A stretch of DNA of 36,917 nucleotides from an uncultured Candidatus Saccharibacteria bacterium (GTDB lineage: Bacteria > Patescibacteriota > Minisyncoccia > Phycocordibacterales > UBA9973). The number at the start of each line of letters is the position of its first letter. The stretch's first letter is position 1. The notes under the pieces were generated by a model. The model ran no database searches, was not told the DNA's origin, and saw only the letters and a list, made by a program, of their open reading frames with translations. Shown one piece after another: positions 4,604 to 31,202 of the stretch. The stretch spans positions 1 through 36,917 of the forward strand of contig CAZVBK010000002.1 of assembly GCA_964625485.1 (NCBI GenBank). Direction: 5' to 3'. A program made the position numbers and the translations under genes.

Positions 4604-4610
4604 TATGGAA

Positions 4611-4619
4611 ATTATATCA
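4611..4619 (-). promoter_or_regulatory. extended -10 (TGATATAAT) 7 nt upstream of polA ATG
   Basis: Minus strand reads GTGATATAAT-TTCCATA-ATG. This is the same 10-mer as in front of the ICMT-like gene. Confidence 0.45.
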
Positions 4620-4642
4620 CTTAAGTTATACTTTATATTAAT

Positions 4643-17418: not shown

Positions 17419-18729
17419 CTATTTTAGTGTTATTTCCCAAAGGAAGGAGTCTTTCTTGTTCACAAAGAACAAGTATTTTTCTGTCGGGTCTATTTGAAGT
17501 TTGATTCCGTCTACCTCTTCCCCGCCTGGCATGGTTATCGGATCAAGTATTAGATTTGTATTACCATTTTCTACGTCTATCAACCAGAAAGAATCGGAGA
17601 AAGAAATCTCTCCTTTATACCAAACATCTGGATAAGAAGATTCATAAATGAGTTTAGGGCTAGCACAATAAATAAATTTATTGGATTGAGACCAGGTACA
17701 TTTATCAGGAAGACCCTTTATTCCTATGGTCTTGGCTTCTCTGGTTTCTGTGTTGTAAATATTCATGGACATTACCCCATCACTATATAAAACCATTTTT
17801 CCGTCTGGACTCATTAAGGTTGTAAGTCCATTGATATTACCGAGAACTTGAGTGAAACTTTTTGTAGTAGGATTTATTTTGTACATATATCCAGGTACCA
17901 AAGAAGACGGTTTTGTTGTTAAGTTTATCGTGCTCGCATTAATCCAAGACGATAGCCATTCTGTAAAAGCGGAGTCAAACACCTGAGTTTTTTTGTCTCC
18001 AGTTGAACCAGCTGTTATACCCACAGAAGCATTGTTGGAATTAAATAAGTAGAACATTTTTGAGCCATCGTAAGACACAGACAGGTCGGTGATATTCTGA
18101 GGAAGAAATGTACCCTTTATTTCATTTGTGTTGCTTGTGTCTCCACCCAAAACTTCTTTAGGTAGTACTCCCACAAAGGTTTCTATTGTTCGGTCATCGG
18201 CTTTTAAGTATCGCATAACAACAGATTCTGCTTTAGCGCCGAAAAAAGCTTCGTGAATTCTTGGGATAATAGTAGAAGTAAATTTCCTCTCTTCTATTTT
18301 GTCAGCAAAGGTTTGATAGATATTACCGTTAGCCTTTTCTGTGTACCTTACCGCAGGCACAAACTCTGTTGTCGGTGCTGTTGGCGTCGTCTCTTGTTCA
18401 TCTATAGCCGGAGCGACTTCCTTGTATCTCTCTTTAGAAAATATACCAAACCCCGCTACTGGCATAGTGGAAACCTTTGTTAGCTTAATATTTGAGTTTA
18501 ACGGCTCTTCCTCGAAATCTTCATCGCCAGTTCCATTGTTTGGTGTTCCGGGTTTCGGGTCTACGATATTACTGTTACCAAAAGGGTTAAAATCAGAAAT
18601 AAAATTGGACCCATCTCCATCCCCAGTGTCCACTCCCCCATTGCCTCTGTTTAAATATAGATAAAGCAGTAACAAACCCACGACAAGGCCTAAGATGATT
18701 GCTAAAAGTGTAAAATTTCTTTTTGACAT
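17419..18729 (-). CDS. membrane-anchored protein with beta-propeller-like (TolB/PD40-like) ectodomain; last gene of the T4SS-like cluster
   Basis: N-terminal TM (FTLLAIILGLVVGLLLLYLYL), then a Gly/Asp/Pro-rich linker. Repeated beta-strand segments include MSPDGKMVLYS and EKYLFFVNKKDSFLWEI. Function unknown. Confidence 0.5.
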   Translation of the reverse strand: MSKRNFTLLAIILGLVVGLLLLYLYLNRGNGGVDTGDGDGSNFISDFNPFGNSNIVDPKPGTPNNGTGDEDFEEEPLNSNIKLTKVSTMPVAGFGIFSKERYKEVAPAIDEQETTPTAPTTEFVPAVRYTEKANGNIYQTFADKIEERKFTSTIIPRIHEAFFGAKAESVVMRYLKADDRTIETFVGVLPKEVLGGDTSNTNEIKGTFLPQNITDLSVSYDGSKMFYLFNSNNASVGITAGSTGDKKTQVFDSAFTEWLSSWINASTINLTTKPSSLVPGYMYKINPTTKSFTQVLGNINGLTTLMSPDGKMVLYSDGVMSMNIYNTETREAKTIGIKGLPDKCTWSQSNKFIYCASPKLIYESSYPDVWYKGEISFSDSFWLIDVENGNTNLILDPITMPGGEEVDGIKLQIDPTEKYLFFVNKKDSFLWEITLK

Positions 18730-18742
18730 ATTATATTTCTAA

Positions 18743-20038
18743 TTATCTACCACTTGTGGACCAATGCCAAGCCTCTGAAGGAAGGTTTATAAAACCATAA
18801 GTCTCTGCATTCTTATCTAGCCAAATAAAACAGGGACTGTTTTTGTCCGGTATTCCTCTCGTACTACCATTACAAGTAAAGTCTACTGCTAAGCCGGTTT
18901 CATGCATTGATGTGCCAGGGAAGGCTGTTGGAGGTTTGCATTGTGACGGAGGTGTGCTGTATAGGTCACCATTGCAGTGCTGAGCTCTCAGTTGCATCTG
19001 GCGGGCACGAGTCCTCCAACCCCAACCACCCAAATTTACCCCTTGGGCTTTAGCCGCTGCTATCATGTCAGTAAGTTTTTGGGCGATACGGCCACAAACA
19101 GTAAAATTTCCGCCTGCTGTGCTTACGCTTTTTATACCCTCAGGACACCTACTCGGGGTTGCAGCTGCTCCAGCTGGAACCCCTGTTGGGAAATTACTGG
19201 CAGTTGGTACCACTCCACCGTCGGAGTCCATACCAATTGTTACAAGTACGGCATCTTTTATCTGAGGATCGGTTATTAGTAGGTCTGGGTTTATCGTGTT
19301 TAATACAACATAAGAACCAAGCGCCAGTATTAATCCTCCTATTGCACCCAATATTCTTTTCTTTCCCTCATCTTTATGCGACACCAGCTCTGTGGTCATG
19401 TATTCTATTCCCCCTACCACTATCATTAGCATCGCCAAGACAGCGCAAATACCTATGAACAGTCTGATCATCAGGTTTAAATAGGTGCTAAACGAATTTG
19501 ATTTAGTTGCGTCAAAGTTTTGCCCGTCGAAATTACCTCCCATAGAAGGAAGAGGGGTCAGTAATTTGTAGTTTCTTGCTCCGTCAGGCAGACAACTGGT
19601 TTTTCCGCTGGCGTCAGTGTAGGACACTGTGTTCGTAGGACAGTTGTTCGGGTTATTTGAACCCATTCCTGTAGTACTAGGAGTAGCTACTGTTACTTGG
19701 ACACTGTTTGAGGCATATCCAGTCGCACTTGCAGTGATCGTGAAAGTTCCCGCAGGTGAACTGGCGCCGTGGACAAAATCTACTGCACAGAATCCTACGC
19801 TTGGAGAGATTGAGCACAATGTTGGAGACAGCGCTCCTCCTGTTGTAGAAAAATTTATATTTACGGCAGTGGTTTTAGGTGAAGGCAGAGCAACTGTTAT
19901 TTTGGTTTGTTGTCCTGGTTGGATTGTTGCCACCCCTGCTCCTATGTGTAGTTGAGGCGTCTGGGCAAGCAAGACACCTGGCAAAAATATGCTAAGTAGG
20001 ATAATTAGTATTAAAAATTTCTGTGGCCTTTGGTTCAT
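18743..20038 (-). CDS. tripartite envelope protein: signal peptide + Ig-like domain, T4SS-pilin-type double-TM module, C-terminal M15 (VanY-like) peptidoglycan peptidase
   Basis: Signal peptide FLILIILLSIFLPGVLLAQ. The pilin module YKLLTPLP...YLNLMIRLFIGICAVLAMLMIVVGGIEYM...ILGAIGGLILALGSYVVLNTINPDLL matches the CPR/monoderm T4SS_pilin (TrbC/VirB2-like) pattern. The C-terminus carries LAS-metallopeptidase motifs SMHETGLAVD and SEAWHW. Confidence 0.65.
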   Translation of the reverse strand: MNQRPQKFLILIILLSIFLPGVLLAQTPQLHIGAGVATIQPGQQTKITVALPSPKTTAVNINFSTTGGALSPTLCSISPSVGFCAVDFVHGASSPAGTFTITASATGYASNSVQVTVATPSTTGMGSNNPNNCPTNTVSYTDASGKTSCLPDGARNYKLLTPLPSMGGNFDGQNFDATKSNSFSTYLNLMIRLFIGICAVLAMLMIVVGGIEYMTTELVSHKDEGKKRILGAIGGLILALGSYVVLNTINPDLLITDPQIKDAVLVTIGMDSDGGVVPTASNFPTGVPAGAAATPSRCPEGIKSVSTAGGNFTVCGRIAQKLTDMIAAAKAQGVNLGGWGWRTRARQMQLRAQHCNGDLYSTPPSQCKPPTAFPGTSMHETGLAVDFTCNGSTRGIPDKNSPCFIWLDKNAETYGFINLPSEAWHWSTSGR

Positions 20039-20039
20039 T

Positions 20040-21047
20040 TTAAAATCCTATGGTTATGCTCTTACTTGCGGTTTGGAACAGCTTATCTGTGTTTTCAATA
20101 TCAAGCCTCAGCGTAGATGCGCCAGATATTCCCTCTTGTACTGTTAAGGGCATCATGTTTTTATTGTAATTCCTTATTTCTTGCATTTCTTCGTCTATAT
20201 ACCAGCGGAATACCCAGATAGGATAATTGAATTCTTTTGGAGATATATAATATGGCGCAGCGACCAAAACCATGCTTTGATCTATAGTGTGACCATCCTC
20301 CAAGGCATTGTTCCAGTCCACTCCAAAAACAGCGTCTTTTTTATAGAAAGTTATCTCAGGTTCGGATGCTGAGGTTGTAATACTTGCCTCTGCGGAAGCG
20401 CTTTGGTCTAAGGTCGAAGCAACGACAGACACACTACTAACTGGCTCCAGGAAGTCGCTCATAAACACATAAGAGTTTTTTCCGTACCCAGATCCATCTG
20501 GGTCATTAGTGTAGTCCTTTTTCCAAGAATAGGTGAGATTTTTAGGATTGATAGTTCCATTACCAGATTTTATCTCTGGCATAGCCACTATTTTTACATC
20601 ACTACCCTCTGTCAGCAGGGCTTTACCCTTATAAAAAGGTGGAACGTAAGCATCATTTGCTTGCCACAATAGAGTCATGACAGCTGGTTTGATGTTTAGC
20701 CTTTTCCTCAATTCCCCGTTTACTGTACCAATGACAACTTCTATCTGAGTGGTGACCCCAAGAGCCCCAGATTCAATGCTAAATGACTTTTTGCCCACCC
20801 CAGACAGAACACTTTTGCCGTTAACAAGCCAAGTTATGAGGAGACTGTCTAGGTTTAGAGAATATGTACTTAGTGTTAGGCTCACCTCTTCATGAGGATT
20901 TGGGTTTTCGGGAACCGAAGTTAGGAGTATGTCAGTTGCTGAAACGGCCAATGCTTTTTCTGGAATACCAAGAAAATAAAAAGCAAAGATGAAAATCGGT
21001 AGCATAACCGAAAGAACTGGAAGTACCGATGAAGTTTTTAATCTCAT
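20040..21047 (-). CDS. secreted/anchored protein, probable tandem beta-sandwich repeats; unknown function
   Basis: N-terminal hydrophobic segment (VLPVLSVMLPIFIFAFYFLGI). Three segments each contain a Trp-centred strand (ITWLVNGK, TYSWKKDY, VFRWYIDEE). No recognisable catalytic motif. Confidence 0.45.
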   Translation of the reverse strand: MRLKTSSVLPVLSVMLPIFIFAFYFLGIPEKALAVSATDILLTSVPENPNPHEEVSLTLSTYSLNLDSLLITWLVNGKSVLSGVGKKSFSIESGALGVTTQIEVVIGTVNGELRKRLNIKPAVMTLLWQANDAYVPPFYKGKALLTEGSDVKIVAMPEIKSGNGTINPKNLTYSWKKDYTNDPDGSGYGKNSYVFMSDFLEPVSSVSVVASTLDQSASAEASITTSASEPEITFYKKDAVFGVDWNNALEDGHTIDQSMVLVAAPYYISPKEFNYPIWVFRWYIDEEMQEIRNYNKNMMPLTVQEGISGASTLRLDIENTDKLFQTASKSITIGF

Positions 21048-21092: not shown

Positions 21093-22946
21093 CTAACTCG
21101 TCTTCATTTCTGAGGCCTCTAGGTCCATCTTGGATTTCTTTATAGAAAGTAGTTGTGATGGATCAGAAGTAATAATCTGGTCTTCGGTATAAGAAGAAAT
21201 AACCTTTATGGCTACGTGCTTGAGACCGGCAAAGAAAATACCCTCCCCTACTCCGGATTCCAAAAGAAGATATTTTTCTTCGTTTGTTAGGTTGAAAGTT
21301 TTCTGAAGGACGTCTATCGTCGTCGGAGATTGTTTTAGTAAGAGTTGGATAGAAGAGTTGGTGACAATAGGCACACCATATGGAGATTTCATAAAGTCTG
21401 CCGCGTCTTGAGTGATAGTGGCCAGACCCAGATAGTATTTTCTACCTCTTTTGGCAATGGAGTACAAGAAAGATGCGGTGTCTTCGGACTTCATCATCCA
21501 CCAAGCCTCGTCCACTACTAGCAATCTCTTCTTGAGAGTTTTACGAATAGCGTTCCAGATGTAGTGCATGATTATATACATAGCTACTGGCTTGAGCTCG
21601 TCTTCCATATCTCGCACAGAGAAAACCACGAATTTCTTGTTTATGTCTACGTTTGATGGGCGGTTTAGGAATGTTGCCCATGTGCCTTTGGTGTACTTTG
21701 CTAGTCTTTGGACCACAGACTCACTCCCTTCCATACCAGTTAGAACCATTTCAAAGTCGGAAAGAAGTGGCGGTTCGATAGACGCGAAGTCTGAGTCTGC
21801 AGTGATGTCTTTGATGGCATAAGTCTCAGAGATTGCCCTGTCGACGATAGAATCCTCTTCTGGGGTTAGTCCTCCCAACATAAGACGGAAAAGACCGACA
21901 AGGTTTATGATGTTTGAACGTAGCACGTCCTCAGGAGCTTCGTCTTCTCTAGGTATCGGAAGTTCAAAAGGGTTGATGTGGTGATCCGAAGAAAGTGAGA
22001 TATTGAAATACCTACCGCCCACTGTTTCAGCCAAATATTCATATTCCCTTTCAGGGTCTATAACAATTACATCGATATCAAACATTAGTGAACGAAGTAT
22101 TTCTAGTTTAGTGGCATAACTTTTACCAGAACCAGACTTTGCGAAAGTCACAGAGTTGTAGTTTTCTAGTGAAAAACGATCAAATATAACGAGACTAGAG
22201 TTGTGCCTATTTACTCCATAGAGTATTCCCTTATCTGAAGTTAGGTCAAAAGAAATAAATGGGAAAACACTAGAAAGAGGCTCAGAGTTAAGCTTTTGAT
22301 GGATATTGAGAAGGTCTGAGCCTATAGGTATGACGCTCTTAAAACCATCCTCTTGTTGGAAAAGGGCTGGTTTGATGTAGATAAGCTTGGATTCGAGCAT
22401 GGATTTGATTTCGTTCTCCAGTTTAAATAGTTCTAGCTCATTGTCGGCATAGACTGTTATGTAGATACTTACATCAAACATTTTCTCTTGGGCTTGGACC
22501 AAGCTATCACGAAGAGAATCTAGGTCTTGGTAGGCGGTGTCGAGCATCGGGTCTCTCACCATTCCCTTTGCTTCTCGGACGCTTATCTGACTTTGGACTT
22601 CAGCTACTTTCTTTTGGAATTGGCGAAGTACTAGAGATGTGTCTATCGGATGTATGAAAATAGAAACGTCAAAGATTTTATCTAGGTTGATGATAGGCGA
22701 AAACCAGTTGTCGGTCAGAAATCTCGGATAAGAGATGATAAAGAACGTGCGGGCGATTTTGTCTCCGAGGTTTATGGACTTGGACTCGATTTTTAGGGCT
22801 GAAGGAGCGATGACGTCTTGGAGTTCTAGGTTTGCAGACTCATATATTTTGTCTGGGAGAACAGGCAAAACAGAGGAATTGATATCATTCGATCCCGTGT
22901 ATCCATCTATTTTATTTTTTCCAAAAACTTTATCAAAAATTCCCAT
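21093..22946 (-). CDS. virB4: VirB4/TrbE/TraC-family type IV secretion ATPase
   Basis: Walker A FAKSGSGKSYATK and Walker B RLLVVDEAWWMM. N-terminal VirB4-type domain (ARTFFIISYPRFLTDNWFSPIINL...). SD-like GGGGAG lies 6 nt upstream of the ATG. Confidence 0.85.
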   Translation of the reverse strand: MGIFDKVFGKNKIDGYTGSNDINSSVLPVLPDKIYESANLELQDVIAPSALKIESKSINLGDKIARTFFIISYPRFLTDNWFSPIINLDKIFDVSIFIHPIDTSLVLRQFQKKVAEVQSQISVREAKGMVRDPMLDTAYQDLDSLRDSLVQAQEKMFDVSIYITVYADNELELFKLENEIKSMLESKLIYIKPALFQQEDGFKSVIPIGSDLLNIHQKLNSEPLSSVFPFISFDLTSDKGILYGVNRHNSSLVIFDRFSLENYNSVTFAKSGSGKSYATKLEILRSLMFDIDVIVIDPEREYEYLAETVGGRYFNISLSSDHHINPFELPIPREDEAPEDVLRSNIINLVGLFRLMLGGLTPEEDSIVDRAISETYAIKDITADSDFASIEPPLLSDFEMVLTGMEGSESVVQRLAKYTKGTWATFLNRPSNVDINKKFVVFSVRDMEDELKPVAMYIIMHYIWNAIRKTLKKRLLVVDEAWWMMKSEDTASFLYSIAKRGRKYYLGLATITQDAADFMKSPYGVPIVTNSSIQLLLKQSPTTIDVLQKTFNLTNEEKYLLLESGVGEGIFFAGLKHVAIKVISSYTEDQIITSDPSQLLSIKKSKMDLEASEMKTS

Positions 22947-22965: not shown

Positions 22966-23610
22966 CTACATTTGGTCGAGACGTATCTTGCCTTGCAGTT
23001 CTCCTGGATTGAAAACTTTATAAAAAGCCTCCACTACTTCTTCTGTGCCTAGCTGTGCGGACTTGATGCCACAGCTTGATAATCCTTGCTGGACCACGCT
23101 CACCCTTTGTTCTAATTGGGATCTTTTTTCTTCAAAATCAAACTGTCGTGAGGCTTCTTCCTCGAGCTTGGCCTCTTTAGAGAAAAAATTCTTGAATCCC
23201 CCGTAGTTAGATTTTAGGCTAGTGTGACTATATGGTATGACCACAAAGAAACTTTTGGTCATGATGCTCACCGAGTCGGTAAAATTCCTTATGAATTCCA
23301 TGTATTCCTTAGTTTGCATTTTGAGTAGTGGTTCAGTTTGCAGATTCATCCTCTCTTCGAGCAGGAGAAGATATGGCCTGATGTCCAGACGCCTAGACTG
23401 CACTGCTATTTGCACAGAAAAATCCAAGGTGTTTAAAAAGTTTTGGAACTGGAGAATCGTCGCCCTTTGCTCATCTTCGGATTTCAAAGATAGGTTTACA
23501 GAGTTTGCTAGCACTATCGCTCGCAAACCCTCATCTTTTAAGATGACTATACCATCGCGCACTGCTTGGATGGGGACAAACTCTTGAGTTGCTTTTGCGT
23601 TTAATGCCAT
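22966..23610 (-). CDS. standalone protein resembling the N-terminal domain of monoderm VirB4 ATPases (no NTPase motifs)
   Basis: TQEFVPIQAVRDGIVILKDEGLRAIVLANSVNLSLKSEDEQRATILQFQNFLNTLDFSVQIAVQSRRLD and FFVVIPY follow the pattern seen at the N-terminus of VirB4/TraE-like proteins. No Walker motifs and no TM. Confidence 0.4.
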   Translation of the reverse strand: MALNAKATQEFVPIQAVRDGIVILKDEGLRAIVLANSVNLSLKSEDEQRATILQFQNFLNTLDFSVQIAVQSRRLDIRPYLLLLEERMNLQTEPLLKMQTKEYMEFIRNFTDSVSIMTKSFFVVIPYSHTSLKSNYGGFKNFFSKEAKLEEEASRQFDFEEKRSQLEQRVSVVQQGLSSCGIKSAQLGTEEVVEAFYKVFNPGELQGKIRLDQM

Positions 23611-23613
23611 AAA

Positions 23614-24045
23614 TTAATAATTATTTCTTTGATTGGGCTTCTTTAAATCTAACACATCTAGACTCCAAGCCAAGTCCCTAAGCTTACTGCCATCTAGTTT
23701 AGAGGTCGTGTGGTCTATGATAAGTTTTTTGTCAGCAGATTCGTCTTTGCTCTCTTTCTTTTCATAAGTTCTTCTCTTCCATATATATAGCTTGTCTTGC
23801 ATTAGGAATTTTAGGCCAGACTCGAGCATCTCCACAAAAGGTTTACCGTTAGGCTTGTAGAAAGTAAGTGAACCAGAAAGTGCGGCGATCATGACCATGG
23901 GAATCAAACCCAGGGTCAACCCTAGCCATTTATACAATACAAAACAGAGCCCTGCCCCACCTATCAAGTAAATAAACTCCCGAAAGGTAAAAGGTCCGAA
24001 TATTTTGTCTTCTATTTCTAAAAATTGTGGAACTTTGAATTGCAT
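23614..24045 (-). CDS. PrgI-family (VirB3-like) small membrane protein
   Basis: MQFKVPQFLEIEDKIFGPFTFREFIYLIGGAGLCFVLYKW... followed by a second TM helix. This is the characteristic PrgI-family N-terminus, positioned immediately upstream of the VirB4-related genes. Confidence 0.65.
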   Translation of the reverse strand: MQFKVPQFLEIEDKIFGPFTFREFIYLIGGAGLCFVLYKWLGLTLGLIPMVMIAALSGSLTFYKPNGKPFVEMLESGLKFLMQDKLYIWKRRTYEKKESKDESADKKLIIDHTTSKLDGSKLRDLAWSLDVLDLKKPNQRNNY

Positions 24046-24086: not shown

Positions 24087-25061
24087 CTATTCATCAGGGC
24101 TTAGTCTGTATGGATCTGCTTTGGGTGGATAGGCTACGGGCGCCTTTGGTGTAGTTGGCTTTGCAATGTTGTCTAGAGAGTGTTCGGTTTTCTGGCTTCC
24201 CATTTGGAATGTTCCACCAAGCTTTTGGCTCAGAACTGGGGCTTTGGGTGGTACAGGGACAGGAGGGACTATGCTTTTCATGACTTCCGGAGCTTCAAGC
24301 TCCATAGCATTTAGGGTTACTGGCTGAGGAGCGACTGGCTTTGTCTCGTTTTCTGCAGGTCGAACTATTTTGGGTATATAAGCTTTTTCTTCTGGCTTAA
24401 CAAAAACCCCCATCATTTCCCTCCTTATGTCTTTCAAGACAGTGTCATTTACTTCATTTACGATCGTCCTACTTTCTGTTTCGTCTACCGATAGTCTAGA
24501 TTTTATTTCGTCAGCAAATTTATCCGGAGAGGTCGCACCCAACATGATATTTACAGTCACTTCTTCGAGTTTACCCATCTGGTCCACGGTGAGTTTGTGT
24601 TTCTGGGCTACTGCATAAAGTTTGTTTGCGTAGCCTGAGTTCTTGATGGCTCGTTGGATGTCCGTAGATAGAGACGCAAATCTTTGATCAAGATTACTTT
24701 CCACTAGATCATTTTCACCTGCCATTTCCTTTTCGTTTTGAGCAAAAACTTTCTCAAGATCCCCTTTGATGTCTTTGAGAATAGAGTTGTTTATTTGTTC
24801 TAGGATTTTTGTGCCGATATCCGCTGAGAGTTTGGAATTATTTTTTATGGTCTCCTCGTATTCTTTATAAGAAATAGCACCCAGCATGAACAGTGTGGTC
24901 TCGGTGGCGATATCGCTTGTTTCTTCTTCTGTTAGGACCATGTCCGAACAAATATTTTTCAGAGTTTCAAGCCAAGCCATGTCAGAAAAAACCTTTTGAG
25001 CTTGTGGTGTAAGCTTGGAATAATACAGGGCGATATTCTTTTGTAATTCTTGTTTATCCAT
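24087..25061 (-). CDS. soluble protein with an internal ~64-aa duplication and a Pro-rich tail; unknown function
   Basis: Repeat 1: LTEEETSDIATETTLFMLGAISYKEYEETIKNNSKLSADIGTKILEQINNSILKDIKGDLEKVF. Repeat 2: LTVDQMGKLEEVTVNIMLGATSPDKFADEIKSRLSVDETESRTIVNEVNDTVLKDIRREMMGVF. The C-terminus is P/V/A-rich. No TM. Confidence 0.5.
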   Translation of the reverse strand: MDKQELQKNIALYYSKLTPQAQKVFSDMAWLETLKNICSDMVLTEEETSDIATETTLFMLGAISYKEYEETIKNNSKLSADIGTKILEQINNSILKDIKGDLEKVFAQNEKEMAGENDLVESNLDQRFASLSTDIQRAIKNSGYANKLYAVAQKHKLTVDQMGKLEEVTVNIMLGATSPDKFADEIKSRLSVDETESRTIVNEVNDTVLKDIRREMMGVFVKPEEKAYIPKIVRPAENETKPVAPQPVTLNAMELEAPEVMKSIVPPVPVPPKAPVLSQKLGGTFQMGSQKTEHSLDNIAKPTTPKAPVAYPPKADPYRLSPDE

Positions 25062-25113
25062 TTGATTCTAAATTTATTTTTACTTTCTACTTTGAACTTT
25101 TCACTTTAGACTT

Positions 25114-27573
25114 CTAGTGATGTCCTCCGCCTCCTCCATGGTCACCTTTGTCTGGGGCATGAGCTGCGCTGGGTTTTCCGTGTCCGTCCCCTCCACCCAG
25201 ATCACTTAATTTCACATCAACCTTCATATTTTTTAACGATTCGTTTATGATCTGTCCAAGGTCACCCATGAAGTTGCCTTTTGGTGTTCCTGTGTCAAAC
25301 CCAGTTGCTTTCTTCATACCCATTCTCATTCCTGCGGCCACCGCGGTGATTATTCCCAAACCGACTTTTGCTGACAATCCCTCTCTTTTGTCTGTAGCGA
25401 TATTGGCTATATTTCTAACATCATAAGTTCCAGTTGTTGATTTTGCTGCCATTCTGTTTAGAATACCGACTGATTGTTTGGCTTCGTCTTGTATGTGATC
25501 AAAATCTGCGTTTGCTCTGGTTTTTGCCAGATTTTTTAATATGTCGTTAAATTCAGAATTTAGTGTATCTTCTACTCCCTTTTTGGCAGAATCTTTTAGT
25601 TCTCCAGTGGATGGGTCTATATTATTAATATCGTAACCAACTTGTTTAGTTAAGGCATCTCGTCTTTCCTTTTTGTATTGAGCTTCACCTTTTGCGTCGA
25701 CGACACCGTTTTCACTAATCAAAATATCTTTGTCGTCATTGTCGTAGCCTCTTCTTATTTGCTTCTCTATCTCTGCTAGTTTTTCTTTTCTAAAGGTAGA
25801 TTTAATTTTTTCTTCTTCTACCCCGGAGAGTCGATCGTTACCTACTCCTTCTAATCCAAGTTTCTTTTTTACGGCGTCTACTTCGTGTCTCGCGTGCTCA
25901 ATTTTACCAGAAGTTTTTTGGCTAGCGTTTATTCTTCCACCGATAATTGTCTTTAGGTTTGTCTGAGCACCTGCTGCCCCTGGCGTAGTCCTCTTGTAGT
26001 TTTCCCAATGATCATTGAAAGACCCTTGCTTGCCACCGAGCTCCCACTGACTTCTAGCTTTGCCGTAGTGCATAGCATCTTCTGTTCTAGAATAACCCGC
26101 CAATACCTTACTACCTTGTCTTCCCGCCGCAGCTGCACCTACGGCTGTTAGTGCGGCACCACCCAACACCAAACCGCCTGCAATTTTAGCACTAGACATC
26201 GCCATAGACCCCAACTGCCCAGAGCCCTTCTTTGCATAGTCGGTAGCTTTAATAAGTAAAATAATGAATATCAATGATGGTATGAGTATGAGTATGAGCA
26301 CTTGCATGAATTCCATTGTGTCTGTTGGCTTTGGCGTAAGAGGATGTTTAGACATCACGGCTATCAGATACAAGAAGAACATGAAAACTGGCGCCATAAA
26401 AGCACTTGATAGCAATTTGGTGGACCAGTTGGACCAACCTATCCCCTCCACCCCACTGAGTTTGGGCACAGGATAAGACATGAAAGCAAACGGAGAAAAT
26501 ATGATAAGGATCCAGAGTTCCACTAGTCTTCCCAAGAAGCTCAAACCGGAAATAAAGAAAGCATAGGCAGCAAATAGCATGATCGCTCCAGCAATGATCG
26601 CGATCATTATCATCAAAGAGGTGGATTCGCGAAGTGGTTCTGAGAGTATGCCGAATACCGTTACGCGTTTGTTCAACAACCCTTCGTCCATCATCCTAGT
26701 GATATTGAATGCGCCTACGAGTTGACCGGCTATGTCTTTTTCTGCCACGCCAGTGAAGCTCGGAGAGAGTGATGCGGAGTAAGCGACTTGGCTACTTATG
26801 GCTATTTTGTTGTAGATAGTCAACGCCATGATGTTTGAAGCATCGATAACGACTTTAGTAAAGAACATACTAAAGTTTATGAGCATGGCCATGATGATGA
26901 CCCAGACGATCATTTTATTGGAGTCATGCCCCCCGAGGCCAAGTATCATTTTGATAGCTATATACAGGAGAATAAAAATGAAGAAAATATTGGACAAGTC
27001 TCGTACTACTGCCCATGAGTTTTCGATGAAGCCCCCTTCGTATAGTTGGGTGCCTATCGACAGTGCCAACAATGAATTGAAAAGCTTGGCCGTAACCGTC
27101 AGGATACCAGCTGGGATACTGAAAAATATCCAGTAAGCAAAAGCCCGCAGACAACCTTGCATAAAATTGGCGGAAAAAATTTCACAATTTCGGATACTCA
27201 TCGCTTTTTCGAATTCTGTGGGTTCGTTGCCAGGGGTCGGCTGAACTGGAGCATTCCCTCCAGTATTGTTGTTACCACCGGTGTTTGCGACTGGGCCACA
27301 ATTCGCTATTGCTGTTGCTTGGGCTGAGTTTAGTGCGGGGGTCCCGGCAGGCAAAACATAAGCAGCAGCCAAGCACACCTCTTGAGGTGTTGCCGCCAAG
27401 CTCTGACAAGAAGAGTAATTTGGTAGTGTCCCCACTGGTGTTGATCGCGTAGTGTTGCTTAGGCAAGTCTGGAAAGGCGAAGTTCCCTGAGCGTTTATCT
27501 CTGTTTTCGCAAAGAAAACACCACCAACTATGGCAAGGGCGAGTATTATGATTTTTCCAATAATTTTTTTCAT
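25114..27573 (-). CDS. VirB6/TrbL-like polytopic membrane protein with Cys-containing exposed N-domain and long charged C-terminal domain
   Basis: Signal peptide, then a ~110-aa Cys/Thr/Asn-rich segment. Roughly 7-8 TM helices lie between residues ~140 and ~470 (FAYWIFFSIPAGILTV..., IFFIFILLYIAIKMILGL..., LILILIPSLIFIILLI). A ~330-aa K/E/D-rich domain follows, ending in GGGDGHGKPSAAHAPDKGDHGGGGGHH. Confidence 0.55.
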   Translation of the reverse strand: MKKIIGKIIILALAIVGGVFFAKTEINAQGTSPFQTCLSNTTRSTPVGTLPNYSSCQSLAATPQEVCLAAAYVLPAGTPALNSAQATAIANCGPVANTGGNNNTGGNAPVQPTPGNEPTEFEKAMSIRNCEIFSANFMQGCLRAFAYWIFFSIPAGILTVTAKLFNSLLALSIGTQLYEGGFIENSWAVVRDLSNIFFIFILLYIAIKMILGLGGHDSNKMIVWVIIMAMLINFSMFFTKVVIDASNIMALTIYNKIAISSQVAYSASLSPSFTGVAEKDIAGQLVGAFNITRMMDEGLLNKRVTVFGILSEPLRESTSLMIMIAIIAGAIMLFAAYAFFISGLSFLGRLVELWILIIFSPFAFMSYPVPKLSGVEGIGWSNWSTKLLSSAFMAPVFMFFLYLIAVMSKHPLTPKPTDTMEFMQVLILILIPSLIFIILLIKATDYAKKGSGQLGSMAMSSAKIAGGLVLGGAALTAVGAAAAGRQGSKVLAGYSRTEDAMHYGKARSQWELGGKQGSFNDHWENYKRTTPGAAGAQTNLKTIIGGRINASQKTSGKIEHARHEVDAVKKKLGLEGVGNDRLSGVEEEKIKSTFRKEKLAEIEKQIRRGYDNDDKDILISENGVVDAKGEAQYKKERRDALTKQVGYDINNIDPSTGELKDSAKKGVEDTLNSEFNDILKNLAKTRANADFDHIQDEAKQSVGILNRMAAKSTTGTYDVRNIANIATDKREGLSAKVGLGIITAVAAGMRMGMKKATGFDTGTPKGNFMGDLGQIINESLKNMKVDVKLSDLGGGDGHGKPSAAHAPDKGDHGGGGGHH

Positions 27574-27611
27574 GCTAATTCAACTAACAATTTAACTAAC
27601 CCCAAACAAAA

Positions 27612-30167
27612 CTAAAATGTCGGATCACCTGCGCGTTTGTACTCCTGGTCGTTAACTTCAAACAATGACATGCATTCAATATCAACTATAACTGGAGCAT
27701 ATGTCTTGGTGTAATCTCCGTATATTCCCTGTGCGTTCACCATCGGCAGTGTTTCATATCCAGGATTCCCCTTCGGGTTGACTACGTTTCTGAAAGTAAA
27801 GAAATTATTCGTTCCCAAATAGTTTTTATTAGAAGCCTCTCCTTGGCGAATTACTTCTCCGTGACTGTATCCACTGTTAATAGGCAGTAAGCAGAATTGT
27901 TCGAGCTCCGTACCGTTTGAAATATAGTCAACAATATTGTTTTTAAAGACACCACCAGATTTGCCGCCCAATGTGGTTATGGGACGTACTCCTACAGCGC
28001 TTGGTTGATAACTAAGATATTTCCTTGTGCGGTCAGTCGGTAGTCTAAATCCAGCCAGGAGTTTCGGTGCACCTCCTGGCGTGCCCATCCAGAAATAAGC
28101 AACAGGGTTTGGTGGTAGCCATCCAGCAGCTGTTCTTTCTTTATTGCAGTCGTCTAAAAGCGCCAAGATTCTTTGGTGTTTTTGTTCTATTAGATCTTTT
28201 TCGTTTCTAGTGTTTTCAATGCTGGCTTCACTTGCTATTTGGTTCTCGAGTGCTAGGTATTGTCTTCTAATTGTTTTTAGTTGGGTGTCTGGTTGTGACC
28301 CAGGAGTTGGCTGAGATGTTATCGCGGACAGTGCTCTCTCGATAGCCTTTAGTTTTGCAAGGACTGTTGTCTTCTCCCTTCTTTTATCTGTAAATTCTTT
28401 AAGCTTTTGTCCGAGGCTATCTGTTTCTTTCACGGCATCGATAAATAGCGCTGAGCTAGGAAGAGCCAAACCACCCCTTTGAGGATAATTTGGATCAGGC
28501 ACCGTTATCATTTGGACACTTATCCAGTCTTTAAACTCGCTGACTGCAAATTTTAAATCTTCTATTACGCCATGCACAGCTTTAACTTTCTCCTCGTCTT
28601 GGCTGGATGTTTCGTCCATTAGTTGACCATTGGTGATCCTCTCTTTCTCTGCGTCTAGTCTAGCTTCCCAACCTTTGTTTGGTCCTGGGATACACTGGTC
28701 TAATTCTTTGACTTTAGGCCATGAGAGATCTAGTAGTTGTATTATGCCCAATTTGAGAGTGTTTACCGGCCCCTTGCCGTCATTATTTGCTGTTCCGTCA
28801 TGGGTCATAATATCAAGCTCGGCTTGAGTTAATTCTACGGCGCCAGGGACGAACTTTGTGATAGGTAGACCGTTTATGTCTACTGTATTTACAGTACCAC
28901 CACTGACTTGTTGTTTGAAAACTCCCAAGTCTACTTCAAGGTTTGTCCAGTTGTTTCCGCTTCCGCCTGTTACAGAAGAGTCCAGACTGTTGCCATAGTA
29001 GTCGAAATCATCGGCTGCTGGCGCAGGGTTGCTGTTGGTTGCGAGTCCTCCCAGACCGCTATCTTTCGCAAAGAACTTCACAAGCATCGCATCAAATATC
29101 GCACCAATACCTGTGCCCAATGCGGCGGCGAGTTCTTTTTGGGTTTGAGTTGTGCCGAGTGTTTTGGTTATCTGGCTACCTATGACAAATCCAGGAGTTG
29201 TTTTTTTGAGTCCTTCAGGGCAGGTGTTTGTCAAAGCCCAGGTGCTATAAGCGGAATTTTTCAAATTGTCGTATTGTTGTGCGTATTGGTTTTGAGCAGC
29301 GATATAAGCAGGGTCAAATTCATCTCCTCCATACTTGTTTATATCAGGAAAAACAAGACTTGCTGGAGGCGTGAAATTAAAGCTTGGACGATTGTATTCA
29401 TTTTTTGAAAGACTGTTGTAAGCAGGACGGGATTCACAGTAATCCGGAGAAAGAAAGCCCAAGCCTTGTTGGAGCATGTCGTTCACCTTCTCCGCTGGCT
29501 TTTTTATTGCTCCGTCTATACGCCTAGATATTTCTTGGCTGGCGACAGCGTCGAACCCCATAGGATTGTTCTGAGGGAACTGAGTATTTACCAGAAATGC
29601 ATCCCAGCCACCGGTCTCGAAGTTAATGCGTAGGTTTCTTTGAGCTACTGGGTCATTGGTCACCTGACTTAGGGAGTAAGCCGCGTTATCCTGAAGTTGT
29701 TTTTTGTATGCGCTTATGACATTTAAAGCATACTGTTTGCCGAAGGGGTACTGGATGTTGTCATAGCCGATGACTTGTATAAAGTCTTTTACTTGAAACT
29801 TGGCGACATCTTTGAAAAAAGATTGAGGATTTTCGAGAAATAGCGGTGCTCCGTGGAAACCGCTATTGATCCAATTCACGGTGCTCTTAGTCATTTCAGC
29901 TAGCGCCCTTTTTGCCAGCACCATCAACATTTGTTTGGCAATTTCTTTAACAAAGTCTTTAAGTGATAGTGATGTTTGCGTCCCTTCCGCTGCGGCACTG
30001 CTTCCTGAGAATATCGTGAGTATGCCACGCTGAAGGGCGGCTACGAAATCCGTAAACTGAGCCTCTGCTTTTTTAGGCTTAGCAAAAACAGCCACAGATG
30101 GGGCTAATATAGCAAGAATCAATAGGGAGGAGATGAACTGTTGGATTTTTTTATTTTGAAAATTCAT
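27612..30167 (-). CDS. large signal-anchored/secreted protein, no recognisable family
   Basis: 851 aa with N-terminal FISSLLILAILAPSVAVFA. The rest is hydrophilic, with a central coiled-coil-like stretch (KLKEFTDKRREKTTVLAKLKAIERAL...). No motif I can name. Confidence 0.45.
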   Translation of the reverse strand: MNFQNKKIQQFISSLLILAILAPSVAVFAKPKKAEAQFTDFVAALQRGILTIFSGSSAAAEGTQTSLSLKDFVKEIAKQMLMVLAKRALAEMTKSTVNWINSGFHGAPLFLENPQSFFKDVAKFQVKDFIQVIGYDNIQYPFGKQYALNVISAYKKQLQDNAAYSLSQVTNDPVAQRNLRINFETGGWDAFLVNTQFPQNNPMGFDAVASQEISRRIDGAIKKPAEKVNDMLQQGLGFLSPDYCESRPAYNSLSKNEYNRPSFNFTPPASLVFPDINKYGGDEFDPAYIAAQNQYAQQYDNLKNSAYSTWALTNTCPEGLKKTTPGFVIGSQITKTLGTTQTQKELAAALGTGIGAIFDAMLVKFFAKDSGLGGLATNSNPAPAADDFDYYGNSLDSSVTGGSGNNWTNLEVDLGVFKQQVSGGTVNTVDINGLPITKFVPGAVELTQAELDIMTHDGTANNDGKGPVNTLKLGIIQLLDLSWPKVKELDQCIPGPNKGWEARLDAEKERITNGQLMDETSSQDEEKVKAVHGVIEDLKFAVSEFKDWISVQMITVPDPNYPQRGGLALPSSALFIDAVKETDSLGQKLKEFTDKRREKTTVLAKLKAIERALSAITSQPTPGSQPDTQLKTIRRQYLALENQIASEASIENTRNEKDLIEQKHQRILALLDDCNKERTAAGWLPPNPVAYFWMGTPGGAPKLLAGFRLPTDRTRKYLSYQPSAVGVRPITTLGGKSGGVFKNNIVDYISNGTELEQFCLLPINSGYSHGEVIRQGEASNKNYLGTNNFFTFRNVVNPKGNPGYETLPMVNAQGIYGDYTKTYAPVIVDIECMSLFEVNDQEYKRAGDPTF

Positions 30168-30206
30168 TTTCTGGTTTAACCTTGTTCTTATTATATAATT
30201 TAAAAC

Positions 30207-31202
30207 TTAGTTATTCAATTTATTCACTATTCCTGCGTTCAGTTTAATGATACTTTCTTCAAGTAATGCAGAATTTTTCTCAAATTGGCTCATGGCTGAC
30301 ATGGCGATGATGGTGTCAGTGCCGAAAAGCTGGATGTCTTCTAGCGTCTCCATATTTTGTTCTAGAGAATTCATGAAGTTTAGGTGAAGTGGCATTATCG
30401 AAATCGGTACTTCCATCTTGGCCATTCCAGACAGTACGGCCGAGGTTTGTTTTATTATAGGGTCAAGTTTTAAAAGAATGGTGGAATCCGGCTCTTCTCC
30501 GCTAGCTATAAATTCTTGGATTATGTCTAAAACATACATGTCCTTAGAGTAAATCAGATACAGCCTTCCTAGGTCATCGTTGTATTTTGTAATAGCTGTT
30601 TTGTCGTCTTTAGCAGAGATCTTGATGTCAGACGCTAAAAAAACCTTACGAATCGGGACGTTTTGAAGTTGTCCTGCAAGTGTCTCCCCTAGTTTGTCTA
30701 CGGTTTCTTGGTCAATGGGTCCTGATTGGGTGAGAGTAGCCACTGTAGAGAAAAGCTCTCTTGAGAATTTGTCGGTTTGGGTAAGTACCTCTTCTTCGTC
30801 TCCTTCGATTGGAGTAAAGCCAGATTCGTTTTCTGCCTTGAGTTTGGCTATGGCTATGTCGTCTTCTCTGCCGTCCCCGTCTGTGTCTCTTACGTTCGGG
30901 TCAGTGCCCCAAAGATTCTCCTCCCAGTCAGCTACGCCATCTTGGTCTGAGTCTAGACTCACCAAGTCCCCTATTTTCTCTTCTCCAAACGCGAGACCTA
31001 TTTGGTTTGCCACCTCATTTTTGTGCTCAGATTTTGTTTTTAAGAAGAAAACGACGCCAAGAAATAGCACCGCTAAAACGATTACAAGAATCCTTTTGTT
31101 TTTTAGCCAATTAAATTTAGTTATGCTAGTAATTATAGCACTTCTGCCTAAGTAAACTAGCAAAAAAGTGTGAAAAACTATTGCTTTGCAAGATTTATCC
31201 AA
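30207..31202 (-). CDS. membrane-anchored protein with thrombospondin-type-3-like Ca-binding Asp repeats; first gene of the cluster, start uncertain
   Basis: TM ILVIVLAVLFLGVVFFL, then DSDQDGVADWEENLWGTDPNVRDTDGDGREDD (DxDxDG-type repeats). The track start is a TTG that overlaps rsmA by 25 nt. Alternatives are in-frame TTG 31163 or a start near 31124 (see findings). Confidence 0.5.
   Translation of the reverse strand: MDKSCKAIVFHTFLLVYLGRSAIITSITKFNWLKNKRILVIVLAVLFLGVVFFLKTKSEHKNEVANQIGLAFGEEKIGDLVSLDSDQDGVADWEENLWGTDPNVRDTDGDGREDDIAIAKLKAENESGFTPIEGDEEEVLTQTDKFSRELFSTVATLTQSGPIDQETVDKLGETLAGQLQNVPIRKVFLASDIKISAKDDKTAITKYNDDLGRLYLIYSKDMYVLDIIQEFIASGEEPDSTILLKLDPIIKQTSAVLSGMAKMEVPISIMPLHLNFMNSLEQNMETLEDIQLFGTDTIIAMSAMSQFEKNSALLEESIIKLNAGIVNKLNN

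Follow-up and report, generated by a model that had tools for sequence, protein, structure and literature searches.

The stretch of DNA analysed here (36,917 nucleotides, hereafter the window) encodes a protein in which a pilin-like membrane hairpin is fused to a VanY-type peptidase domain (Table 1). The ORF is uninterrupted from its ATG start and lies in a tight operon, PrgI-TrsD-VirB4-335aa-fusion gene-436aa, beside jag, yidC, rnpA, dnaA and dnaN; it begins 1 nt past the upstream stop and ends 13 nt ahead of the next start. The 335-aa and 436-aa flanking proteins gave no family match and no match in the PDB, and the 819-aa polytopic protein of the same operon may be VirB6-like, judging by its topology and position. 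The window contains no pilin-like ORF besides the fusion gene. Searches found no further wall hydrolase in the operon, no second wall-enzyme cassette in the 37-kb window, and no relaxase or T4CP among the window ORFs scanned. A class A PBP is encoded 7 kb away. Promoter and terminator scans returned background levels, and a search for recombination signals found only trivial repeats around the gene.

Table 1. The fusion gene, its domains and the surrounding operon, listed in the direction of transcription (coordinates of the window).
Feature	Position	Strand	Basis or occurrence
Operon remainder, without family match: 324-aa soluble, 819-aa polytopic membrane, 851-aa exported and 331-aa membrane-anchored proteins	24087..31202	minus	
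PrgI / VirB3-like small membrane protein	23614..24045	minus	
TrsD-like protein, related to VirB4 N-terminal region; 'TraC-like' in relatives	22966..23610	minus	
VirB4-like T4SS ATPase (TraG P-loop, AAA_10, DUF87)	21093..22946	minus	
Conserved upstream partner gene: 335 aa, secreted or anchored, no family match	20040..21047	minus	82/83 related loci
Whole gene: pilin-like/VanY fusion protein, 431 aa	18743..20038	minus	
N-terminal signal peptide or anchor, aa 1-25	19964..20038	minus	Hydropathy; model helix 6-18
Variable extracytoplasmic beta-sandwich domain (predicted), aa 30-118	19685..19951	minus	AlphaFold2 model; relatives
Conserved core, aa 155-257: YKLLTPLP, VirB2/T4SS_pilin-like two-helix membrane hairpin, NTINPDLL	19268..19576	minus	
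Linker, aa 258-299, disordered, Pro/Thr/Ser/Ala-rich	19142..19267	minus	Model; relatives
C-terminal VanY / peptidase M15B (LAS) zinc peptidase domain, aa 300-431	18746..19141	minus	
Conserved downstream partner gene: 436 aa, N-terminal TM segment, no family match	17419..18729	minus	79/83 related loci

An earlier note, made from the sequence alone, had divided the ORF into four parts; this layout was borne out, with every motif quoted for it present in the intact ORF. The N-terminal signal peptide or anchor has a basic start (MNQRPQK), a hydrophobic core and a probable cleavage site at VLLA|QT. The second part, which contains the stretches TKITVALPSPKTTAVNINFSTTGG (amino acids 45-68) and TFTITASATGYASNSVQVTV (amino acids 98-117), had been described as Ig-like: AlphaFold2 does predict a beta-sandwich for residues 30-118, with moderate confidence (pLDDT about 66-77), but neither Pfam nor Foldseek gave a significant family or structure match for it. 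Hydropathy identified three hydrophobic segments, at residues 4-30 (the signal peptide or anchor), 183-216 and 228-249, the last two joined by a basic loop, KDEGKKR, and modelled as a helical hairpin (182-215 and 219-249; pLDDT 80-86). The conserved core holds YKLLTPLP at amino acids 157-164, GGIEYM at 209-214 and NTINPDLL at 250-257. The linker between pilin module and peptidase, which had been thought flexible, was modelled as disordered at residues 258-275 (pLDDT <50) and includes the low-complexity stretch DSDGGVVPTASNFPTGVPAGAAATPS (amino acids 272-297). The C-terminal domain, with SMHETGLAVD at amino acids 377-386 and EAWHW at 422-426, was modelled confidently over residues 300-431 (pLDDT >90).

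A frameshift that joins two genes, or a chimeric contig, would give the same layout as an artefact of assembly or annotation. This is refuted by independent assemblies and we give it practically no weight: the ORF is intact, an independent NCBI assembly has a fused copy of 99% identity, the fused architecture recurs in about 30 clusters of more distant sequences (JGI, ENA, Logan and NCBI), and dozens of independent contigs carry the fusion in identical synteny. Among the best 150 matches to the core in a library of 1.84 billion proteins, 118 continue for at least 100 amino acids past the core, and a GTDB scan with an alignment of 27 sequences found the fusion in at least 180 species genomes. 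The fusion is kept in related genomes, but the class of the enzyme varies between them or the enzyme is absent.

The assignment of the C-terminal 110 amino acids to the M15/VanY peptidases proved significant by profile, by PDB sequence and by fold. Pfam VanY (PF02557) matched amino acids 317-417 with E=4.4e-11 (43.1 bits against a cutoff of 25), the NCBIfam VanY-B/G and LdcB models matched partially, a sequence search of the PDB returned a VanY-type carboxypeptidase (5zhf, E=4.8e-8), and Foldseek returned VanXYc (4oak, E=1.7e-6, target TM 0.51) and LdcB (4mph, E=8e-6). The predicted active-site set is complete, with H379, D386 and H425 as putative Zn ligands, E422 as the candidate catalytic residue, R342 and also S377; on alignment these six residues, the His/Asp metal ligands included, were retained in 35-36 of 36 fused VanY relatives. 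The domain shares the fold and the active site (R, S-x-H-x6-D, E-x-x-H) of the VanY, VanXY and LdcB enzymes (M15B, LAS superfamily), but is only about 20% identical to them, is fused to a T4SS hairpin and is rich in cysteine, with six Cys residues of which four are conserved. Its activity may be that of a D,D- or L,D-carboxypeptidase, or of a stem endopeptidase like the VanY-fold phage lysins. Enzymes of the VanY/LdcB type are mostly carboxypeptidases, which trim peptide stems rather than open holes, so that cutting of cross-links by the window enzyme, as the earlier note had envisaged, is not established.

The proposed pilin module stands as a two-helix module that matches Pfam T4SS_pilin (PF18895) in 104 of 120 relatives (best E=1.5e-12), but the window protein itself scores just under the Pfam cutoff (26.4 against 26.6 bits, E=7.2e-6, amino acids 181-240). 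TrbC (PF04956) was matched weakly by the window protein (E=0.015) and by 17 of the 120 relatives (best E=9.3e-7), and a pilin-like family of Mycoplasma ICE was matched by the hairpin as well. When all PDB sequences (E up to 10) were searched with a core profile, no solved conjugative pilin came up, only chance efflux-pump matches, and tblastn with the core gave no match in 72,556 plasmids. The homology that suggests pilin membership is therefore weak. In its organisation the protein shares with VirB2/TrbC pilins a signal peptide, two hydrophobic helices, a short basic loop and encoding within a T4SS locus, where it has the VirB3/VirB4-adjacent position of a pilin, two genes after VirB4. The mature pilins, however, are of ~7-12 kDa (about 70-120 aa) without passengers, whereas the window protein has ~125 aa before the core and ~175 aa after it; at 431 aa, it falls outside the small subunits without additional globular domains that define T4SS_pilin and TrbC/VirB2.

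By gene content and location, with VirB4, TrsD and PrgI/VirB3 near dnaA/dnaN/rnpA/ksgA and no relaxase found among the window ORFs scanned, the locus is the oriC-proximal chromosomal T4SS operon previously described for Patescibacteria. A chromosomal, MPF-FATA-like T4SS with VirB2-like pilins has already been published for these bacteria (Quinonero-Coronel et al., 2025, PMC12102498; Wang et al., 2023, PMC10633639); the window shares with it VirB4, TrsD, PrgI/VirB3, a polytopic VirB6-like protein, a PF18895 pilin-like protein and the dnaA/dnaN/rnpA/ksgA neighbourhood. In the published accounts VirB1 and VirB2 are treated as separate components and the pilins are described as short and often in arrays, whereas here the sole pilin-like gene encodes 431 aa with a wall enzyme (PMC12102498; PMC10633639). 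The fusion can be seen in their Table S3, as a 'VirB2' with cluster Pfam PF00877, but is not discussed there or elsewhere in the literature searched. The gene order recurs in loci L001-L003 and across 83 loci that belong mostly to different species, with VirB4 upstream of the fusion gene in 77 of the 83.

The main new result, more striking than the single fusion, concerns the C-terminal enzyme, which is an exchangeable cassette. In relatives the slot that it occupies holds VanY, M15_4, NlpC/P60, YkuD, SLT_2, SLT_3-like or further domains, or a domain that was not recognised, and in some the slot is empty; the catalytic motifs are retained in each recognised enzyme class. Two relatives, P0025 and P0108, are 95% identical over residues 1-200 and unrelated beyond; on their contigs, DNA of 97.1% and 98.4% identity flanks an unrelated segment of ~510 bp that encodes VanY in one and NlpC/P60 in the other. 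The swapped segment (506 bp against 521 bp) falls entirely within the ORF and the downstream gene is conserved at 98.4%. The junction in relatives coincides with the start of the linker, and the downstream 436-aa gene would serve as the 3' homology arm. One VanY cassette is shared at 97.9% identity by backbones whose own identity is only about 77%. Both the length (0 to about 450 aa) and the fold of the N-terminal region are hypervariable, and the region is swapped independently.

VirB4 is up to 100% identical in protein while the DNA diverges by 15%, and is too conserved to resolve relationships, so enzyme class was mapped with the two flanking proteins. On this flanking-gene tree, enzyme class is distributed almost at random: 15 of 72 nearest neighbours were of the same class (10.4 expected), and Fitch parsimony needed 43 changes, against 46.8 with shuffled labels. 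Clean alleles with neither a C-terminal domain nor a separate hydrolase within 6 kb were found at 4-6 of the 83 loci, from which it follows that the enzyme is not universally required. YkuD domains are primarily transpeptidases; since they occupy the same slot, 'wall-active' is a safer term for the cassettes than 'hydrolase'.

One C-terminal class, 'unk22', has invariant GGTE-W-H, H..T-D and E..HWH motifs and a confident AlphaFold2 model, but matched nothing in Pfam, nothing in a profile search of the PDB, and no structure by Foldseek at E<0.001 in PDB or BFVD; local hhalign comparison with the VanY and M15_4 classes gave low probabilities. Its motifs may be LAS-like, which is only a guess. 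At least one confidently folded domain without recognisable relatives thus occupies a slot otherwise reserved for wall enzymes.

These exchanges bear on whether the protein could be a housekeeping LdcB/VanY-type carboxypeptidase for the cell's own peptidoglycan, with its two-helix anchor and T4SS neighbourhood coincidental. The closest solved relatives of the domain are indeed VanY/VanXY/LdcB carboxypeptidases and the class A PBP gene is near, but the gene is embedded in a T4SS operon with gaps of 1 nt and 13 nt and synteny kept in 77-82 of 83 loci, its anchor is of a family that mostly matches T4SS_pilin, and a housekeeping carboxypeptidase would be neither interchangeable with SLT, NlpC/P60 and YkuD domains nor absent. 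We rejected this explanation, which is strongly disfavoured and very improbable.

The idea of the peptidase as a stand-in for VirB1, with which the earlier note had compared it, is strengthened by the SLT-type domains in the same slot, which use the classical VirB1 chemistry, by the lack of any other wall hydrolase found in the operon, and by the essentiality of an M15B-like protein in Southlakia. There, an M15B-like/DD-peptidase protein (SEML1_0007) and a lysozyme/cysteine-peptidase protein (SEML1_0006) are encoded directly after VirB4, and both are essential by Tn-seq (PMC10633639). Most Patescibacteria with VirB2 have no recognisable VirB1 (PMC12102498), and a wall enzyme built into the pilin-like subunit of Paceibacteria is a possible explanation of this shortage. 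As a predicted extracytoplasmic peptidoglycan-active domain inside a T4SS operon, the window domain would belong to the VirB1-like class; homology to VirB1/TrsG/CD419 (SLT or CHAP/NlpC-P60) is absent from the window protein, which has VanY only, and relatives with NlpC/P60 or SLT would qualify.

Monoderm VirB1-type enzymes vary in domain content between systems (SLT, CHAP/NlpC-P60, M23). PrgK (pCF10), TraG (pIP501) and CwlT (ICEBs1) are, like the window protein, membrane-tethered, extracytoplasmic and modular peptidoglycan enzymes encoded in a T4SS operon, but their anchor is a single N-terminal TM helix where the window protein has a VirB2-like hairpin. To our knowledge, VanY/M15B and YkuD are not among the usual catalytic domains of such enzymes, and we know of no description of enzyme exchange between near-identical strains for them. 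The principle of a structural subunit with a wall-cutting or binding module is also that of FlgJ (flagellar rod cap and muramidase), evolved VgrG (e.g. VgrG-3), phage tail-associated lysins and the modular type IV pilins of Streptococcus sanguinis, in which fused and split forms vary between lineages and catalytic domains are mosaic; these belong to unrelated machines with other carrier folds, and none is known to have a VirB2-like hairpin.

Taking these observations together, we consider it most probable (about 0.6) that the protein is a modular display VirB2-like subunit of a Paceibacteria-class T4SS, which carries its exchangeable peptidoglycan-processing module, the counterpart of VirB1. 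The conserved two-helix hairpin would sit in the cytoplasmic membrane and perhaps also in a T4SS filament; its basic loop would face the cytoplasm, an orientation that would place both ends of the protein outside the cell. The conserved Cys residues of the C-terminal domain, the signal peptide and the two TM helices with their basic loop were all counted for the topology. Displayed outside would be the hypervariable N-terminal beta-sandwich, presumably a binding domain, and, on a flexible linker of roughly 40 residues, the VanY/M15B zinc peptidase, predicted to be catalytically intact. In function the peptidase would correspond to the VirB1 of diderms and to the PrgK/TraG/CwlT of monoderms, and wall remodelling would occur exactly at the site of apparatus assembly because the enzyme is supplied in cis. 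Homologous recombination, with the conserved core as its 5' arm and the downstream gene as its 3' arm, would swap the enzyme for other wall-active domains.

Several observations sit uneasily with such a subunit. VanY/LdcB enzymes typically trim stems, some alleles lack the C-terminal domain and the pilin homology is weak; the random-like turnover of the enzyme and the hypervariable N-terminus resemble inter-organism conflict more than housekeeping.

A possible but clearly less probable explanation is that the protein is a weapon directed at a host: displayed on a filament or at a contact site, the N-terminal domain would bind the host and the enzyme would digest the host wall for penetration or nutrients, with diversifying selection behind the exchange of cassettes, either to fit the chemistry of the host wall or to escape inhibitors or phages. 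Evolved VgrG spikes, phage tail-associated lysins and polymorphic toxins follow the same logic. The near absence of correlation between enzyme class and backbone phylogeny, the strain-level swap, the transfer of a cassette between diverged backbones and the independent swapping of the N-terminal domain all fit it, and every enzyme class seen has precedents as an antibacterial effector or tail lysin. The T4SS of one studied relative, which is without a relaxase, is essential for epibiotic growth, which also counts for such a weapon. Polymorphic toxin and effector systems likewise have a conserved N-terminal carrier with exchange of the C-terminal domain between close relatives, but they have a co-varying downstream immunity gene, whereas here no immunity-like gene accompanies the cassette, the swapped segment lies within the ORF and the downstream gene is conserved (98.4%; 79 of 83 loci). 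Further, a tether of ~40 residues would reach only the producer's own wall unless the subunit were extruded, and filament formation by this hairpin is hypothetical; passengers of ~15 kDa at both ends would probably crowd a VirB2-type helical lattice, and some Paceibacteria-type organisms are reported in the literature on archaeal hosts without peptidoglycan.

The alternative raised in the earlier note, processing into separate products, would make the protein a precursor from which the N-terminal domain, the enzyme or both are cleaved after export to leave a small pilin (about amino acids 155-260) and a soluble wall enzyme. The linker, disordered and of low complexity, would lend itself to cleavage; alleles without a cassette show that the core can work alone; the conserved YxLLxPLP and NTINPxLL motifs that bracket the core could be processing or recognition sites; and N- and C-terminal trimming is established for TrbC/VirB2. 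We nonetheless regard it as doubtful, and as less probable than a host-directed function, as no TraF-like maturation peptidase was found among the scanned window ORFs and, if its products act separately, it is hard to see why the fusion should have been kept in at least 180 species genomes.

For the modular display subunit that we favour, the outward ends count among the most rapidly changing parts of a machine that is otherwise extremely conserved, which suggests that the subunit is likely to be the interface with the outside, whether wall, host or phage. A bolder proposal, which we think unlikely, is that the hairpin is a true polymerising VirB2-type pilin, and the product an enzymatically armed filament that presents a variable domain for host binding together with an enzyme that cleaves peptidoglycan. 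If true, such a filament would be a drill through the host wall and a concrete route for ultra-small bacteria into their hosts; populations would share a pool of enzyme and adhesin cassettes, recombined to track host wall chemistry or to escape phages; and the filament would constitute a new class of functionalised conjugative-type pilus. The natural isogenic alleles, with VanY, NlpC/P60, YkuD, SLT or no enzyme on the same backbone, could be used to probe the role of the enzyme. A recent perspective called the function of the Patescibacteria T4SS "completely unknown", and the exchangeable wall-active cassette offers points that can be tested.

The fusion gene is an uninterrupted ORF of 431 codons in which every sequence string quoted in the earlier note was located at its expected position. 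Kyte-Doolittle analysis of the product gave hydrophobic segments at residues 4–30, 183–216 and 228–249, the last two being separated by a basic loop (KDEGKKR), and an AlphaFold2 model built with 120 homologues as input (mean pLDDT 77) divided the protein into the regions listed in the table. The C-terminal region had been read as an M15/VanY peptidase, and this was borne out: Pfam VanY (PF02557) matched amino acids 317–417 with 43.1 bits against a cutoff of 25, the NCBIfam models VanY-B/G, LdcB and VanXY were matched partially, phmmer recovered VanY-type carboxypeptidases among PDB sequences, and Foldseek grouped the predicted domain with VanXYc and LdcB (E about 1e-6). By all computable criteria, the protein is a member of VanY/M15B. 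The N-terminal domain had been called Ig-like; a beta-sandwich is indeed predicted there but has no significant match to any family or structure, so the term should be taken as 'predicted beta-sandwich'.

Assignment of the hairpin to VirB2/T4SS_pilin is supported by sequence profiles. T4SS_pilin (PF18895) matched amino acids 181–240 with 26.4 bits, 0.2 below its cutoff, and the TrbC/VirB2 match was weak; the proposed pilin module gains from the homologues, T4SS_pilin being detected in 104 of 120. The 'small subunit' feature of VirB2/T4SS_pilin is lacking in the fusion protein. Amino acids 180–249 also matched NCBIfam NF045849, 'Mbov_0395 family pilin-like conjugal transfer protein', from Mycoplasma ICEs (E=5.9e-4). 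On this sequence similarity VirB2-like hairpins may be present already in MPF-FATA elements, which a 2025 survey (PMC12102498) regarded as being without pilins. The TrsD of the window operon matches a Mycoplasma VirB4 model.

An assembly artefact was ruled out, since an independent NCBI assembly encodes the fused protein at 99% identity, and the pilin plus VanY architecture was present in about 30 further 90%-identity clusters (NCBI, JGI, ENA, Logan). The metal and catalytic residues were kept on alignment, R342, S377, H379, D386, E422 and H425 being invariant or nearly so (35–36 of 36 fused VanY relatives), and the enzyme is thus under purifying selection. G+C content varies within the gene (N-domain 0.48, core 0.405, linker 0.52, VanY 0.475; window 0.41, neighbouring genes 0.39–0.43), which fits both passenger regions having a history unlike that of the core.

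Features of the fusion protein and of the window (aa, residues of the fusion protein; other positions in nucleotides of the window)
Feature	Position	Strand	Remark
Fusion ORF	18743-20038	-	
Seven-strand beta-sandwich	aa 30-118		AlphaFold2, moderate confidence
Long helical hairpin	aa 182-249		AlphaFold2
Disordered linker	aa 258-275		AlphaFold2
C-terminal domain	aa 300-431		AlphaFold2, very confident
436-aa protein flanking pilin gene	17419-18729	-	in about 80/83 related loci
335-aa protein flanking pilin gene	20040-21047	-	in about 80/83 related loci
VirB4	21093-22946	-	
851-aa exported protein	27612-30167	-	inside operon
896-aa soluble protein	34181-36871	-	past uvrD
PilB/GspE-type (T2SSE) ATPase	4643-6340	+	MshEN domain

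In this lineage pilin and enzyme are as a rule fused, and the enzyme forms an exchangeable cassette; a survey of related genomes, through which the earlier note had proposed to follow the fusion, showed that the fused form prevails and its C-terminal enzyme varies. Among the 120 homologues Pfam identified C-terminal VanY (43 proteins), NlpC/P60 (14), SLT_2 (6), Peptidase_M15_4, YkuD and Amidase_5 (5 each), SLT and SLT_3 (2 each), and every recognised class keeps its catalytic motifs. With the core located in each homologue, the median length beyond it was 172 aa and that ahead of it 91 aa (range 0–453). The C-terminal regions cluster into eight multi-member families, three of them without a significant Pfam match; two of these three bear the E-S...G-L/P-F-Q-I motifs of lytic transglycosylases, a 13-protein family including one member with a weak SLT_3 match (E=1.9e-4), and the third has 22 members. 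When the 106-aa core was searched alone against 1.84 billion representative proteins, it gave 12,848 matches at E<=1e-3, and 118 of the best 150 extend at least 100 aa beyond it.

A GTDB scan (one genome per species) found the core motif in 180 genomes, from which 80 loci were kept; with three long contigs that share the exact gene order of the window and carry VanY (L001), NlpC/P60 (L002) or YkuD (L003), these make 83 loci, L002 and L054 being the same contig. VirB4 lies upstream on the same strand in 77/83, the two flanking genes were found in 82/83 and 79/83, and downstream jag and yidC in 74/83 and 72/83. The slot holds VanY in 24 (over-represented because the query is a VanY form), NlpC/P60 in 12, the unassigned 22-member domain in 10, an SLT_3-like domain in 7, M15_4 in 6, YkuD in 5, SLT_2 in 5 and another or none in 16. 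Clean alleles lacking a C-terminal domain occur at four to six loci; there, no more than about 10 nt lie between the stop and the following gene, and a hydrolase encoded separately was not found within 6 kb.

The 22-member class (P0033, amino acids 150–306, P0034, P0036 and others; alignments A2 and A5), found at 10 GTDB loci, sits in the slot that elsewhere carries VanY, NlpC or SLT. It has invariant motifs (GGTE-W-H, H..T-D and E..HWH), the domain is modelled at pLDDT >90, it had no match in Pfam, PDB sequences, PDB folds or BFVD folds, and it may represent a metal-dependent wall enzyme not described so far. One species (locus L020) has tandem pilin-core genes in the slot (3335–4339 and 4365–5516), the C-terminal domain being VanY in one and an unassigned domain of 192 aa in the other. 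In P0121 (443 aa) two separate stretches match the pilin core, and in P0122 (618 aa) four; each would seem to be either a single polypeptide in which several hairpin modules are fused or a set of tandem genes called incorrectly.

Median core identity was as high between enzyme classes (61%) as within them (59%), and some protein pairs have cores 92–99% identical with different enzymes. P0025 (VanY) and P0108 (NlpC/P60) are 95% identical over residues 1–200 and unrelated beyond; their contigs show 97.1% DNA identity as far as codon 200 (1,504 bp), then about 510 bp of unrelated sequence, with identity resuming at 98.4% where the downstream gene begins. One cassette has been replaced precisely by another in strains that are otherwise almost identical, with no additional gene. 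P0045 and P0055 have the core alone in common, so both ends have been exchanged. On a backbone tree of the two flanking proteins (72 tips), the nearest neighbour had the same enzyme class in 15/72 cases (10.4 +/- 3.6 with shuffled labels; at least 15 in 264/2000 shuffles), and Fitch parsimony required 43 changes against 46.8 with shuffled labels (minimum 41); enzyme identity is thus near random relative to the backbone. One VanY cassette was 97.9% identical across backbones only about 77% identical, indicating a common pool of cassettes. Neither repeats nor other signals of recombination were found beside the cassette, and homologous recombination between the core and the downstream gene would be the simplest mechanism of exchange.

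The fusion gene belongs to a compact operon on the minus strand, with gaps of 1 nt and 13 nt to its neighbours. The order is a 331-aa anchored protein, the 851-aa exported protein, an 819-aa polytopic membrane protein, a 324-aa soluble protein, PrgI/VirB3, TrsD-like, VirB4, the 335-aa exported protein, the fusion gene and the 436-aa anchored protein. Immediately past it are jag (R3H), yidC, rnpA, dnaA, dnaN, a class A PBP and an aminoacyl-tRNA synthetase; ksgA and uvrD lie on the other side. The operon is the chromosomal T4SS near oriC that was described previously in Patescibacteria, above all in class Paceibacteria (PMC12102498), and homologues of the fusion protein carry the names Paceibacterota, Nomurabacteria and Parcubacteria. 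An HMM of the conserved core found no second pilin-like ORF across the 37-kb window, and the window ORFs scanned included no further wall hydrolase and neither a relaxase nor a coupling protein. The 436-, 335-, 851- and 896-aa proteins had no family or PDB match; the first two are probably uncharacterised T4SS components. VirB4, encoded next to the fusion operon's pilin genes, is 99–100% identical over 600 aa between loci (pairs L013/L071, L006/L033 and L035/L028) with DNA identity of only about 85–93% (L013 and L071 have zero amino-acid changes despite about 15% nucleotide divergence), and is under extraordinarily strong purifying selection while adjoining hypervariable pilin ends. The PilB/GspE-type ATPase, about 12 kb from the operon, presumably derives from a type IV pilus system; the window also encodes PolA, a PIN protein, a PEMT-like membrane protein, RuvB and a class A PBP with a C-terminal Big_7 domain.

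The positive-inside charge distribution and the signal peptide would put the passenger domains at both ends on the outer side of the membrane, with the leader either cleaved or retained, and the conserved cysteines of the predicted C-domain would fit an extracytoplasmic location. Processing of the fusion protein into separate products we consider improbable. Monoderm T4SSs require a dedicated, membrane-tethered peptidoglycan hydrolase. References 72–76 cited in PMC12102498 state the same need. No other candidate was found among the ORFs scanned in the window operon. In Southlakia epibionticum, the two genes directly after VirB4 encode a 1,113-aa protein with a C-terminal Hedgehog/DD-peptidase (M15B-like) domain and a protein that combines a cysteine peptidase domain with two lysozyme-like domains. 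Tn-seq showed both to be essential (PMC10633639), and short pilins are encoded there by genes of their own, so that Saccharimonadia have as separate proteins the functional pair that Paceibacteria have fused. On these grounds we read the C-terminal domain as a putative wall-processing module of the T4SS, borne in cis on a VirB2-like subunit (probability roughly 0.6). The near-random turnover of the enzyme, its hypervariable N-terminal partner region and life as an epibiont would suit action on the wall of the host, which we regard as a less likely reading; the shortness of the tether and the general need of monoderm T4SSs for a hydrolase would suit action on the producer's own wall.

As a wall-processing module, the fusion protein would be like VirB1-type enzymes in its working, by analogy and not by homology. 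It shares a carrier-plus-cassette architecture with polymorphic toxins but differs in having no co-varying immunity gene. The 2025 survey found VirB1 missing from most VirB2-bearing genomes, with VirB1 matches tied to VirB4 in Paceibacteria only (PMC12102498). Its Supplementary Table S3 enters KKT24894.1 (GCA_001000035.1; gene 645, two genes after VirB4, 643) as VirB2 with the cluster Pfam PF00877 (NlpC/P60); the fusion signal thus sits, uninterpreted, in published data. Patescibacteria T4SSs and VirB2-like pilins are already known (PMC12102498, PMC10633639, PMC12857230); no discussion of pilin–enzyme fusions was found in the searchable literature, and the fusion is of real interest to T4SS researchers and to the biology of ultra-small bacteria.
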